From the IMG/VR virus record IMGVR_UViG_3300031853_000005, positions 1-53,468 of that record: a stretch of DNA of 53,468 nucleotides, one strand, 5' to 3'. Below are positions 25,196-43,713 of this stretch, piece by piece (the stretch's first letter is position 1; each line of letters opens with the position of its first letter). This stretch comes from a virus (lineage: Duplodnaviria; Heunggongvirae; Uroviricota; Caudoviricetes). Both the position numbers and the translations under genes were made by a program. The notes beneath the pieces are model-generated. The model did not search any database, was not told the origin of the DNA, and worked only from the letters and a program-made list of their open reading frames with translations.

Positions 25196-25549
25196 CCATT
25201 TGTTCCACCGAGTTCGCTACTCTCGATGAGCGCACAAAGCGCATCTCTATGTTTCCATAGAAGTGCAGACTATATCTTCATCCATTTCCGGATGCCCACC
25301 ACAGTCTTCCGCTTGGAAGCACTTAGTCGTTGAACCTTCTCCTATTCGGAGCTTGGCTGCTGATTGTCCATTATTACAGCACTTAGGATTTAACCTTATG
25401 CTATCTACATATTTCTTTCTGCTTTCGCCACCGTCGCACATAGGTGTTTCAACCTTATGCTGTGGTATATGTAGCTTTAGGATTTCCCAGCAATTCAATG
25501 GGTTATTTATCATACACGTCTCCGTATACGGACGCTGTTTATATCTTCA
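25196..25549 (-). ncRNA. Group I self-splicing intron (IA2-like, ORF-less, 354 nt) in major tail protein gene
   Basis: P1 GACGU/GCGUC with U.G at the 5' splice site; core elements UUGCUGGGAA, CAAUCAGCAGCC, UUCAACGACUA, GAAGAUAUAGUCU; extra P7.1-type helix; P8 CAUCCG-GAAA-UGGAUG; terminal G. Confidence 0.92.
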
Positions 25550-31346: not shown

Positions 31347-32628
31347 CGATAGTGTTTGTCAGCTTGCTAATTCTGCCGACAAAATCTCATCGATTCTGTC
31401 GTAATCAAAATATGGAATTCTGATCAAATGAATACCGTGTGTCGAACAATATTCATTTTTAATTTGATCGTGCATTTGTAATATAGAAAATGCTTTCTCC
31501 CCACCGAAGAAAGCATTTGATTTGAAGTGTTGCACTCCATCATATTCAATTGCAGTATTTAAACTTTTAATATAGAAATCAAATGGAAGAGCATATTTGT
31601 CCTTACAATCATCAAACCTATATTCATGAATAAATTGTATTTGATGACTTTTCAGCCAATGATCTATTTTTAATTCGCCATCTGATTTCTTACAATTCGG
31701 ACATCCGAGTGATGTGTTTTTACTCAACGCATCGTGCGGAGACTTATCAAAGTATGTTCCACAAATACTACAGCGCATAGTTATTTTATGTCTGTTGTTC
31801 GAATACTTACCGATGACAATTATCTCAGGATGCTCTCGATTCATTTCTTCAACGAATTCATCATGTGTTTTTCTGTTAACACCTGAACACTTTGGACATC
31901 CTTTTCCACTAAGTATGCTGTGTGGAGTTGCCTCCCATTTGTGGTTACATATGCCGCACTTCAATAAGATTTTATTATCTGTAGATTTATAATCTCCCAA
32001 AACTATAATATTTGGATTAATAGTTTTAACTTCTTCGATAAACTCATCCTGTGTTTTCTTCTTTGTTCCACCGCATTTTGGGCAACCAGAACCAAAACAC
32101 ATACTTCCAGGAGTCGAATAAAAGCTGTATCCACAGACATCACAGCGCATTTCAATCTTTGTCCTATTATTCTTATATGTACCAATAACAGTTAAAGTCG
32201 GATGCTTTTCTTTCATTTCCGCAATAAACTGTTCATGAGTTTTACGTTTGATAGAATCACATCCATTCTATATTTTTTTTCGACACAGAATTAGCAATAA
32301 CGGTTCGCTACACCGCGCAAGCCATAAGGCTTCTCATACTTTCATATGAGTCCAGACTATATCATTCACCATGCTTTCGTTTAGGTGTCCTCCACTTCGG
32401 GAACGCTTGTTCCCTAACAGCATTTCAGCCGATAGTCGTTGAACCTTCCTCTATTCGAGGCTTGGCTGCTGATTGCCCAATCCATATACTTTTTAAATCC
32501 ATTACGTTTAAGCATTTCATCTTTCCGCTTTGGCTATATGGCTCTAAGGGTTTTCCAGCAATTCAAAGGAATTCATTATATGCTTTCACATATAACGGAC
32601 TAATCACGCGACATAAGTCGCGCTTCTA
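31347..32628 (-). ncRNA. Group I intron (IA2-like, 1282 nt) with homing endonuclease ORF in the P9 region
   Basis: P1 GAUUAG/UUAGUC with U.G at ATGAU|; core UUGCUGGAA, CAAUCAGCAGCC, UUCAACGACUA, GAUAUAGUCU; P7.1/P7.2 helices; perfect 12 bp long-range pair 32286-32297 with 31364-31375 enclosing the ORF; terminal G at 31347. Confidence 0.92.
31359..32252 (-). CDS. Intron-encoded homing endonuclease (repeated Zn-ribbon units + Vsr/EDxHD-like nuclease)
   Basis: Three KKT(Q/H)DEF.EE...CxxC...CPKC repeats; LPFDFYI...AIEYDGVQHF nuclease motif; frame open to ATC at 32252 behind GGATGTGA (track ATG at 32216). Confidence 0.85.
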   Translation of the reverse strand: MKRKTHEQFIAEMKEKHPTLTVIGTYKNNRTKIEMRCDVCGYSFYSTPGSMCFGSGCPKCGGTKKKTQDEFIEEVKTINPNIIVLGDYKSTDNKILLKCGICNHKWEATPHSILSGKGCPKCSGVNRKTHDEFVEEMNREHPEIIVIGKYSNNRHKITMRCSICGTYFDKSPHDALSKNTSLGCPNCKKSDGELKIDHWLKSHQIQFIHEYRFDDCKDKYALPFDFYIKSLNTAIEYDGVQHFKSNAFFGGEKAFSILQMHDQIKNEYCSTHGIHLIRIPYFDYDRIDEILSAELAS

Positions 32629-41140: not shown

Positions 41141-42583
41141 CTACAGATGAATTACCATGCCTTTGAATGCACAAAGAACACGATAGGTTTTGTTATTCTT
41201 AGAGATTTGTTCTTTCAGTTTATCAGCAAGAGATTTCTTGCTTTCCATATCACCATGCACAAGCACAAGCTTGTCGCATTTCAGTGAGCTGCCATATGTT
41301 ATAAGATCATTGTGACCGGCATGACTGCTGAATGTTGATAATGTAATGCAGTCTGCGTTGTTCGCAATCGCTTCTTTATTGATGCTGATAAACTGTCTTT
41401 TACGATAATTCTTAATTCGATACGACAAATAAGATGGATTATCACCGGTATAACCCGTAAATATAATCATACTGTTTGAATCCTGGATATGCTTTTTCAA
41501 GTAGTCAACAACTCTTCCGTTTGTACAGAATCCAGAAGCAGAGATGACGATCTTCGGTCTGCTGTCATTCAGCACCATCCTGGAATCATCTTTCTCTTCA
41601 ATAAACTGTACGTTCTTCCACTTGCTTGCTTCTTCCCATAATTGAAGATCTTCGCCATCAAGTATTTTGGAATATAGTTTGCTGATTTCACAACTGAGTT
41701 TTGAATCGACATAAATCTTTGTATGAAATGAAGGATCATCACCATACAGCTCATAAAGCGTTGTCAGAATCTCCTGTGTTCTGCTGAAGCTGAAGCATGG
41801 GAGTACAGCAGTTCCTTTTCGCTCAATCGTCGTATCAATAGCCGCTTTAAGATGAAGAATATCATCATAGCGTTTTTTGTTATTCGCCTTTTTCGCATTG
41901 CCATATGTTGACTCCATCAGAACAACATGGTTGAAATCTTCCGGAATCTCCGTATGATCAACATAGTGATTCTTTGTATTCAGCGCTCCAAGATCCGATG
42001 TATACAGAATCTTTGTTCTCTTGTTCTCTTTCTTCAGTATTAGCTGAAGCTGTGCCGCACCGAGGCAGTGTGCATTGTACAGCCATTGAAAACTGACCGT
42101 ATCATTCAGCTCATAAATGTGGTTATATTCATCTAACTCATAGACATACCGAAATGTCTCTTTAACATCATCCATGTCATAGAGCGGTTTATATTCTCTG
42201 TGATGGCGTTTCGACAGAATCTTCGCCTCTTCTGTCAGAATATAGCATGAGTTCGACAGAAGCGGTTTCATGATCTCCGCCGTTTTCGCCGTTGCAATGA
42301 TCTTTCCCTGAAACCCTTCCTTTATCAGCCTGGGAATCAGACCGCAGTGATCAATATGCGGATGCGCTACGAATACAAAGTCAAGCTCAGAAGGCTTAAA
42401 CTGAAACTTCTCAGAATTGATTTTATAGGAATCCAGATAATCGTTGCTTGAAGACTGGTGTAATCCACATTCAAGAAGCATCTGGCAATCTCCGAATCGA
42501 ATGTAATACTGTGAGCCTGTTACATCATCAGATGCTTTTCCAGTGAAAAAGATTCCGTCACCCTTGAGCTTCTTCTTACTCAT
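41141..42583 (-). CDS. Metallo-beta-lactamase/beta-CASP nuclease (CPSF73/YSH1-like)
   Basis: HPHIDH, NAH, YTSDLG, MESTYG, SASGF and FSSHA motifs. Confidence 0.9.
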   Translation of the reverse strand: MSKKKLKGDGIFFTGKASDDVTGSQYYIRFGDCQMLLECGLHQSSSNDYLDSYKINSEKFQFKPSELDFVFVAHPHIDHCGLIPRLIKEGFQGKIIATAKTAEIMKPLLSNSCYILTEEAKILSKRHHREYKPLYDMDDVKETFRYVYELDEYNHIYELNDTVSFQWLYNAHCLGAAQLQLILKKENKRTKILYTSDLGALNTKNHYVDHTEIPEDFNHVVLMESTYGNAKKANNKKRYDDILHLKAAIDTTIERKGTAVLPCFSFSRTQEILTTLYELYGDDPSFHTKIYVDSKLSCEISKLYSKILDGEDLQLWEEASKWKNVQFIEEKDDSRMVLNDSRPKIVISASGFCTNGRVVDYLKKHIQDSNSMIIFTGYTGDNPSYLSYRIKNYRKRQFISINKEAIANNADCITLSTFSSHAGHNDLITYGSSLKCDKLVLVHGDMESKKSLADKLKEQISKNNKTYRVLCAFKGMVIHL

Positions 42584-42831: not shown

Positions 42832-42907
42832 TGGCGGCTCTTAAAGGACTCGAACCTTTGACATGCTGGTTAACAGCCAGCCGCTCTACCAACTGAGCTA
42901 AAGAACC
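42832..42907 (-). tRNA. tRNA-Asn(GTT)
   Basis: GGTTCTT/AAGAGCC acceptor stem, GCTGG-CTGTTAA-CCAGC, GGTTCGAGTCC, encoded CCA. Confidence 0.97.
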
Positions 42908-42909
42908 AT

Positions 42910-43300
42910 AGAATGCGGTCGGTCATCCATTGTGCCGCTTGTCGGTGGCGTACACCGCAGAATCCCGATTGCGAGAACTAAGGGAAAGTTCCGACACCCT
43001 CCCTTTACAAGAACACATCCCCGAAGGGCCTACTATGCTCTTTCATTCAATAAAACCGACTGTTACGGTACGCCCCATACGGTGGACGTGCGATGAATTC
43101 CAAATCTATACGCCAACTTATATACCGCATACGCCAGCGGTCTGTTGCAAGCAACACTCAGTAACCGCTTGCACGATTACGAAAACCGTTTCTACTATTG
43201 TAGATCGGTAAAAACAGAAAGCCATCAAGTGTGCCGCGCCTCGATGATGGCTGTAAAGAATCTGAGCATCGATATTTGGTCGGCCTGATGGAAGTGCCTA
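42910..43300 (-). ncRNA. Candidate large structured ncRNA inside tRNA cluster
   Basis: No SD-led ORF; many nested helices including cUUCGg and gCUUGc tetraloop hairpins and long-range complements; boundaries approximate. Confidence 0.55.
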
Positions 43301-43313
43301 AAATAATTTTATA

Positions 43314-43399
43314 TGGTCGGGAAGGGTAGACTCGAACTACCGGCGTTTCATCTGTCACGGCTTTACAGGCCGCTACCCTCGCCGCTGGGCTACTTCCCG
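43314..43399 (-). tRNA. tRNA-Tyr(GTA), long variable arm, C1:G72
   Basis: CGGGAAG/CTTCCCG-A-CCA, GCGGC-CTGTAAA-GCCGT, GGTAG-TTCGAGT-CTACC. Confidence 0.95.
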
Positions 43400-43402
43400 A
43401 TG

Positions 43403-43477
43403 TGGTTGCGGGTGCTGGATTCGAACCAGCGTCTTCAGCTTATGAGGCTGACAAGGCTTCCACTCCTCTAACCCGCA
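43403..43477 (-). tRNA. tRNA with CAT anticodon (Met; partly initiator-like)
   Basis: TGCGGGT/ACCCGCA-A-CCA, TCAGC-CTCATAA-GCTGA, GCTGG-TTCGAAT-CCAGC. Confidence 0.92.
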
Positions 43478-43488
43478 GTATATCTATA

Positions 43489-43564
43489 TGGTGGACGGTA
43501 ACGGAATCGAACCGTTGACCTCCTGAGTGCAAATCAGGTGCTCTCCCAACTGAGCCAACCGCCC
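43489..43564 (-). tRNA. tRNA-Ala(TGC)
   Basis: GGGCGGT/ACCGTCC with G3:U70, CCTGA-TTTGCAC-TCAGG, encoded CCA. Confidence 0.97.
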
Positions 43565-43713
43565 ATGTTATCTGCCCCGACACAGGCCGAGGCAGAACCG
43601 AGAAGAGAAAGATAGAGGATGCGAATGATAGCATATGGCTATACCATATACCATAATACATAAAATTTTTGAAATGCTCAAAACCCCAGTAATTACTGTA
43701 CTTTGACAAACTT

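Follow-up and report, generated by a model that had tools for sequence, protein, structure and literature searches.

The non-tRNA RNAs that accompany tRNA genes in phage tRNA islands include GOLLD, ROOL and the phage Y-like RNAs, and their functions are, to our knowledge, still open. Two-piece tmRNAs, in turn, are encoded by genes of permuted order, and the tRNA-like domain of tmRNA (RF00023, RF01849) presents an alanine acceptor with the G3·U70 pair, A73 and CC, and no anticodon. In YrlA (RF02553) a permuted T-arm is followed by an acceptor closed by a loop (6 bp in Salmonella) and by a D-like arm (10.1101/312249); this RNA has no anticodon either, and it is found in phages and beside tRNAs (Chen et al. 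2014, PMC4201824; Wang et al. 2018, 10.1101/312249). ROOL (RF03087) averages 581 nt with six multistem junctions and GOLLD (RF02032) often exceeds 800 nt (PMC5737381, PMC12286853), while the HDV-like theta ribozymes of gut phages are small structured RNAs encoded beside phage tRNA genes (Kienbeck et al. 2024, PMC10879173). The locus described here likewise lies in a phage tRNA island, and it is a structured non-coding RNA of an unlisted class.

The window (the whole stretch of 53,468 nucleotides analyzed) covers the initial 53 kb of a virus record that has a length of 117 kb, is 76% complete and belongs to a phage found in bovine, sheep and other gut metagenomes, the host of which is probably a Firmicute. 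On the minus strand, a YonO-type RNA polymerase gene (PF05183), a 298-aa gene and the genes for tRNA-Ala, tRNA-Met and tRNA-Tyr precede a gap of 406 nt between tRNA-Tyr (43314-43399) and tRNA-Asn (42832-42907), and tRNA-Asn is followed by a small gene and by genes for an MBL/beta-CASP nuclease, ClpP, an exonuclease-like protein, the terminase and the portal, an order that we take to be SPbeta-like. An earlier note on this DNA had proposed a single ornate RNA of about 400 nt here, and all the motifs it listed are indeed present on the minus strand inside the gap. The nuclease is a candidate processing enzyme for the array, the parts of which are as follows.

43314..43564, minus strand: tRNA-Ala(UGC), tRNA-Met(CAU) and tRNA-Tyr(GUA), upstream part of the array (ARAGORN, Rfam)
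43222..43291, minus strand: module A1, outer helix CCRUCAG/UUGAYGG, ACAC bulge and 4-bp helix (43284-43281 with 43236-43233) (homologue pairing)
43231..43287, minus strand: inner domain of A1, UCGAUG/CAUCGA hairpin with a conserved GAUUCU loop at 43262-43257 (covariation)
43145..43218, minus strand: module A2, optional 74 nt, UCUAC/GUAGA hairpin and UGUUG/CAACA tetraloop hairpin (homologues)
43109..43141, minus strand: module A3, CCGC/GCGG hairpin with UGGCGUAU loop, then the second GGCGUA (sequence conservation)
43056..43107, minus strand: core, putative permuted tRNA-Ala-like module of about 55 nt (RNAalifold consensus, pair counts, signature)
43011..43040, minus strand: module B1, GAGCAU/GUGUUC stem with inner UUCG hairpin (z -2.5; three versions known)
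42940..43004, minus strand: module B2, multi-branch junction with AGGGA/UCCCU pseudoknot onto the AACU/AGUU hairpin loop (changes in L341)
42912..42938, minus strand: module B3, GCACA...ACCGA motif (similar motif in L303)
42832..42907, minus strand: tRNA-Asn(GUU), downstream border (predicted tRNA)
41141..42583, minus strand: MBL/beta-CASP nuclease gene, co-oriented (Pfam PF10996, PF07521, PF00753)

Folding of the single sequence is not significant (z -1.6) and was discarded as proof of structure: the whole gap reaches z -1.58 against shuffles, and its halves folded separately reach -1.43 and -1.09. Two short ORFs overlap the gap and are broken in close relatives by indels of 1 and 74 nt, so no ORF is conserved. 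With folding unremarkable and the ORFs broken, the case rests on homologues, which were gathered via flanking proteins, one productive pattern scan and covariance-model searches. A scan with Rfam 15, OLE and raiA included, returned nothing for the gap at E<=10, and nothing for nine loci that are homologous or related, in agreement with the suggestion of a new class. The alternative first offered, a truncated GOLLD or ROOL, is at odds with the lack of matches to either model at E<=10 in the whole record (the ROOL search having no positive control), and the array is not GOLLD, ROOL or a theta ribozyme. Our own permissive descriptor, which had no positive control, detected no HDV-like nested double pseudoknot in 42850-43350, the topology of the B2 pseudoknot differs from that fold, and a descriptor for the hammerhead core found none. 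BLAST against phage and plasmid records returned chance words only, exact-pattern scans with the motifs of the earlier note and with module B gave only unrelated matches, and promoter and terminator scans stayed at chance level. A full-text motif search of the literature led only to unrelated siRNA and oligonucleotide papers; a prior unnamed listing in the Fremin 2023 catalogue of viral structured RNAs (PMC10690425) is possible.

The relatives reveal that the modules are structured and that they are gained, lost and reordered separately, a conclusion we hold with high confidence; compensatory changes mark three of the modules. The composition of the loci is the following.

Window, L228: A1, A2, A3, core, B1, B2, B3
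L340-345: A2 absent
L100, L226: B absent
L236: A2 and B absent
L235: A3 and core only
L288, L331, L332: A1 and core, then other cassettes
L354: A1 inner domain, then a tRNA-Glu gene, then core
L303: core first, A1 outer helix behind the core
L297 family, L298: core alone

A single RNA of 400 nt is thus not the conserved unit. What stands of the original proposal is a non-coding structured RNA in the tRNA cluster, to which the covariation, the frame-breaking indels and RNA contigs all point. The conserved unit spans 55-240 nt, and its modules reorder or stand alone, in contrast to the single long RNAs of GOLLD and ROOL. All core carriers that could be checked belong to one clade, SPbeta-like phages with a polymerase of the YonO type, in which the polymerase of the L297 family is 43% identical and L310 has PF05183, and the core is absent from most members of that clade (one strong match among 50 records).

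The core is the most widespread module, with 17 distinct versions (16 tabulated plus L354) that derive from about five lineages, and its elements are arranged as listed below.

43102-43096, minus strand: loop of the T-like arm
43089-43084, minus strand: acceptor 3' strand, U70 at 43086
43083-43081, minus strand: A73-C74-C75, followed by a 5-nt linker
43075-43070, minus strand: acceptor 5' strand, G3 at 43073
43068-43056, minus strand: 3-bp hairpin (D-like)

A T-loop-like arm is thereby followed by a 6-bp acceptor helix closed by a loop and by a 3-bp hairpin. The 6-bp helix is 100% paired in 13 versions, with two pairs changed on both sides (A-U/G-C and U-G/G-U); its score was reached by none of 500 shuffles, slid controls were 26-54% paired, and RNAalifold returns the same helix with the 3-bp hairpin behind it. 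The closing loop starts with ACC and measures 6-8 nt, the linker behind ACC being 3-5 nt across versions. G1-C72 and G2-C71 are found in 16/16 versions, G3·U70 in 15/16 and ACC in 14/16, with U70-C74 invariant by construction in the L297 family, L298, L303 and L310, where the pattern scan fixed GTCCAC and left G1-G3 and C75 free. Versions found by synteny present G73 in L334 and A75 in L341, and position 76 is A in just 7/16. Even though A would pair better, and although position 3 was free in the search pattern, it is G in 15 of the 16. Among the 293 distinct tRNAs of the fetched loci, the combination GGG/UCC plus A73 (G1-C72, G2-C71, G3·U70) occurs in 11 of 13 alanine tRNAs and in 0 of the 280 others. 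An independent covariance-model match in a 155-kb phage keeps this signature with the T-like loop changed to UGAAA, which we take to be a T-loop-motif pattern. The T-like loop upstream of the helix is otherwise a 7-nt UGRAAUY on a short stem that is 73% paired, with two covarying pairs and a closing U-C mismatch in the window lineage and L310; it keeps U54, R57, A58, Y60 and C61, not UUC. A swapped elbow pair (G56-C19) was considered and rejected, as position 56 is A in L354 and the other loop has not changed there.

These counts also bear on the reading of the locus as a neutral or DNA-level relic, either what is left of the join between two tandem tRNA-Ala genes after their decay or a tRNA 3' end copied in attP-like fashion. 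The core helix does resemble the acceptor of the phage's own tRNA-Ala, and three copies have a gene for a tyrosine recombinase downstream. Against such an origin, already disfavored, both strands covary, U-G to G-U included, loop sequences are kept across phages with polymerases just 43% identical, and the T-like loop is unlike any host T-loop and hence could not restore a host gene; two core patterns, both strict, also found no match in GTDB genomes. We regard this reading as highly improbable.

The order of the core elements is that of YrlA, with which it shares the occurrence in phages and beside tRNAs and the lack of an anticodon; order and acceptor helix are supported, the T-like stem is weaker and the D-like arm is invariant. 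Unlike the variable acceptor stem of YrlA, that of the core is a conserved alanine identity set. The elbow loops differ as well, since the T-like loop lacks the canonical UUCRA and the invariant 3' hairpin lacks the GG of the D-loop, and neither an enclosing stem equivalent to the anticodon stem nor a Ro60-binding helix was seen. RF02553 gave no match at the gap, its sub-threshold hits lying only on or beside true tRNAs, and a profile search with a positive control detected no TROVE/Ro60 gene (PF05731) in the 76%-complete record. From the tmRNA tRNA-like domain, with which it shares the G3·U70 alanine acceptor, A73, CC and the absence of an anticodon, as well as the permuted gene order of the two-piece form, the core differs in having no tag frame or mRNA domain, a linker of only 3-5 nt, a 6-bp helix and no model match; a tRNA gene directly follows it in L100, L236 and the L297 family, which leaves no mRNA-like domain. 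By sequence, then, the core appears to be built like YrlA with the identity of the tmRNA tRNA domain and to be a member of neither, given the lack of an RF02553 match, a TROVE gene, canonical elbow loops and a message domain. The fold as the top half of a permuted tRNA is predicted, and we think it probable that these 55 nt represent such a half carrying the alanine identity set and closed by a 6-8-nt loop.

Resemblance to tmRNA raises the alternative that the core is opened in its loop by RNase P or the beta-CASP enzyme, gains CCA and is alanylated as a two-piece RNA, which would then act like the tmRNA tRNA domain or donate alanine outside the ribosome. The alanine set and CC are kept in the core, the permuted order is shared with the two-piece tmRNA genes, and in M. 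smegmatis RNase P cleaves YrlA, which also acquires CCA (PMC4201824). Cleavage of YrlA by RNase P was, however, seen only with 7 bp (PMC4201824), one more than the core helix has; there is no message domain, tRNA-Asn directly follows the core in L100, ARAGORN finds no tmRNA in the genome and RF01849 has no match. Such a fate therefore seems unlikely.

G3·U70 is the major alanine determinant (PMC9976931), and a core with neither anticodon nor message could not decode or tag. The best explanation is that the gap is a modular array of small structured RNA genes beside phage tRNAs, traded like tRNAs between phages of one SPbeta-like clade. The modules would be co-transcribed with the tRNAs and presumably released either by nucleases with which the host processes tRNAs or by the beta-CASP enzyme of the phage. 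The core would be a decoy for factors that bind tRNA ends, the likeliest single function in our view, although somewhat less probable than not. Host factors recognizing T-arm, acceptor and CCA end could be drawn off in this way, be they AlaRS or anti-phage effectors acting on tRNA tails by cutting or modification, and host and phage tRNAs would be spared during late translation. Effectors of this type exist: Cas12a3, which acts against phages, grips tRNA by its T-arm, acceptor and CCA tail (PMC12851939), and the patchy distribution of the core fits an accessory counter-defence element. Counting against a decoy, Cas12a3 requires a free CCA tail in order to cleave, and an acceptor sealed by a loop offers none. 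At 55 nt and with variants found in nature, the core has an identity element for which a classic single-base control exists (G3·U70 to G3-C70), so it can be asked directly in vitro whether phages employ tRNA-end decoys against tRNA-targeting defence.

In another reading, the modules would be cis-acting punctuation and the core a mascRNA-like processing or stabilizing signal in a long transcript that starts with the tRNAs and extends over the genes for nuclease, protease and packaging. Every copy has the orientation of its transcript, and in L298, L303 and L310 the core occupies a gap without tRNAs, flanked by a phosphoesterase gene and a recombinase gene. In most loci, on the other hand, real tRNAs on both sides already supply processing sites, most clade members do without the core, and the alanine wobble is not needed for processing. 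We consider this role quite unlikely; if processing or stabilization were the only function, the locus would be of no more than modest interest, as a collection of new RNA motifs.

Transcript data bear on this point as well. Contigs from four RNA studies of rumen and gut cover the gap (42924-43226, 42917-43260, 42965-43242 and 42997-43161, at depths of 2-6), bridge module borders, and differ from the window in ways that match natural variants, a 74-nt skip among them. One study (X15), which can be cited for a cis signal, has contigs on both the array and the downstream genes; the contig search left the polymerase gene region without cover, and three RNA runs contained almost no other phage pieces. 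The contigs are consistent with transcription of the array, bearing in mind that the runs were selected with the array sequence, that assembled contigs give no level, ends or strand, and that DNA carry-over is possible. The 74-nt skip in contig X17 had suggested splicing, which was ruled out because the same junction is found in genomes that lack A2, making it a genomic variant.

Covariation among homologues, named in the earlier note as a check, is found in the core helix and in both the outer and inner parts of A1. The outer two helices of A1 are 100% paired in eight versions, with a C-G to G-C or U-A change in the inner 4-bp helix. The 3' strand UGAUGGCU, initially matched with AGCCAUCA, pairs instead 7/7 with the 5'-terminal CCRUCAG in all nine loci, with an A-U to G-C change in CCRUCAG/UUGAYGG; the helix first drawn is complete in the window (8/8) and drops to 7/8 or 6/8 in five relatives, three others missing its 5' strand. 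In the inner domain, 98.8% of cells are paired and five pairs are changed on both sides in seven versions, and this domain occurs without the outer helix in L310 and L354. Within A2, UGUUG/CAACA is backed by one compensatory change (U-A to G-C in L100 and L226), and the UCUAC/GUAGA hairpin is invariant in the few carriers; the latter is also true of UGCGGU/ACCGCA. The AGCGGU helix said to enclose UGUUG-CUUG-CAACA is not supported, as AGCGGU falls within the 74-nt piece absent from L236 and L340-345, and ACCGC forms a local hairpin instead, which L235 and L310 retain. For A3, conservation is limited to the sequence, which L235 and the distant L310 share with the window. The pseudoknots between GGCGUA copies and GUACGCC also fall away, since five of the eight loci with the GGCGUA hairpin of A3 lack any UACGCC over a distance of 400 nt, and the third GGCGUA belongs to the acceptor-like helix as its 5' strand.

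Besides the core and the inner 5' hairpin, the structures missed at first include the AGGGA/UCCCU pseudoknot of B2, which shows a two-sided change (A-U to U-G) in L341. Module B is confined to the nearest strains, and its covariation, from three near-identical versions, is weak. Its UUCG hairpin inside GAGCAU/GUGUUC, as originally described, changes C-G to U-A and C-G to U-G in L341. UGUCGG/CCGACA, GGAACU/AGUUCU and CGGUG/CACCG share bases and could not all form at full length together; the AACU/AGUU pairing is supported by a one-sided change in L341. A long-range CCGAC/GUCGG closing stem was rejected because it is broken in L236 and L288.

A link between domains is suggested by the GAUUCU loop of the A1 inner domain, which complements the core loop 6/6 in 10/10 loci at spacings of 44-238 nt. 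One-sided changes occur in L226, L331 and L354; L226 extends the complement by three more pairs, and L354 presents a C-G to U-A change with a tRNA-Glu gene between the partners. Chance alone would give a 6-bp complement to the core loop in 40-60% of stretches of 260 nt, so the support reduces to the conservation of the GAUUCU loop and one double change. We are evenly divided on whether this pairing is real and holds a two-domain RNA together or masks the elbow. If real, it competes with the T-loop fold and may mask the elbow, and the partners flanking a tRNA gene in L354 would act in trans once the tRNA is excised. Together with the A1 loop always lying upstream of the core where both are present, this complementarity can be taken to favor one ornate RNA, about 240 nt (43291-43056) or 400 nt in length and including optional domains, that would assemble by way of kissing loops like GOLLD and ROOL. 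Possible kissing loops are shared with GOLLD and ROOL, and the rumen habitat with ROOL; GOLLD sometimes has tRNAs in its linker (PMC12286853), as between the domains of L354, and the RNA contigs cross module borders. Conversely, several phages have the core without the other modules, L303 shows the opposite order, B is limited to the nearest strains, GOLLD and ROOL give no match and the GGCGUA loops have no conserved partner; we judge a single RNA improbable. A more far-reaching and unlikely reading would be a Ro60-independent, alanine-specific tRNA mimic, its acceptor sealed by a loop and its elbow loop held by a second RNA domain, which in one phage lies beyond a tRNA gene and would perhaps act in trans; the mimic, without anticodon or message, once opened would become a chargeable, switchable two-piece RNA intercepting AlaRS or tRNA-tail-targeting immunity. 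Mimicry of rRNA was rejected: conserved motifs resembling 16S words give a nominal 8-mer excess against E. coli 16S alone, in one of 12 tests, and matches are at chance (P 0.6-0.9) when compared with the positions that do not vary among five 16S and among five 23S sequences. More generally, the array shows phages swapping small RNA modules as they do tRNAs, so that searches of such gaps for one molecule can miss the real units.

Several further elements were observed in and around these clusters. On the minus strand, a CU-rich tract followed by a GC-rich hairpin lies 5' of the first tRNA (43570-43625), is kept in many of the inspected relatives even where the tRNA set differs, and is possibly a 5' leader or another small RNA. 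Two group I introns (RF00028, 88 and 80 bits) are located in the structural region (25245-25535 and 32333-32625, minus strand). A motif like the GCACA...ACCGA of B3 recurs near 78345 in the second tRNA cluster of the same genome. That cluster, beyond the window (L346), also contains a GC-rich, ORF-poor stretch of about 400 nt directly 3' of tRNA-Thr (G000:C1:77372-77780), a candidate further ncRNA array with no Rfam match. A recurring inter-tRNA cassette that starts with GGCGTTAA, holds CTGTGG and has a long closing stem is present at L227:3154-3235, L245:3255-3340, L288:3275-3360 and L332:1775-1860, with no Rfam match in the L288 record, and a short AAACTGC...TCAGTT cassette takes varying positions relative to the core (L303:2099-2120, L310:5637-5656, L331:1727-1750). 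Additional unannotated structured stretches (L100:5285-5415, L310:5445-5590, L288:3530-3790) include tRNA-like genes missed by ARAGORN and a GACGG/CCGUC helix whose order is the opposite of that in module A1. Endonuclease-like ORFs, homing or other as judged by eye, are inserted in tRNA clusters of relatives (L009:3930-4680, L010:3790-4420, L275:2130-2750) and possibly drive cassette exchange. Homologues of the 298-aa gene with 66-67% identity lie without tRNAs beside resolvase/integrase and HTH genes in L104 and L107 (4001-4897), and in a distant relative a skipping-rope RNA (RF02924, L005:5894-5971) occupies the position of the array, just downstream of the homologue of this gene.
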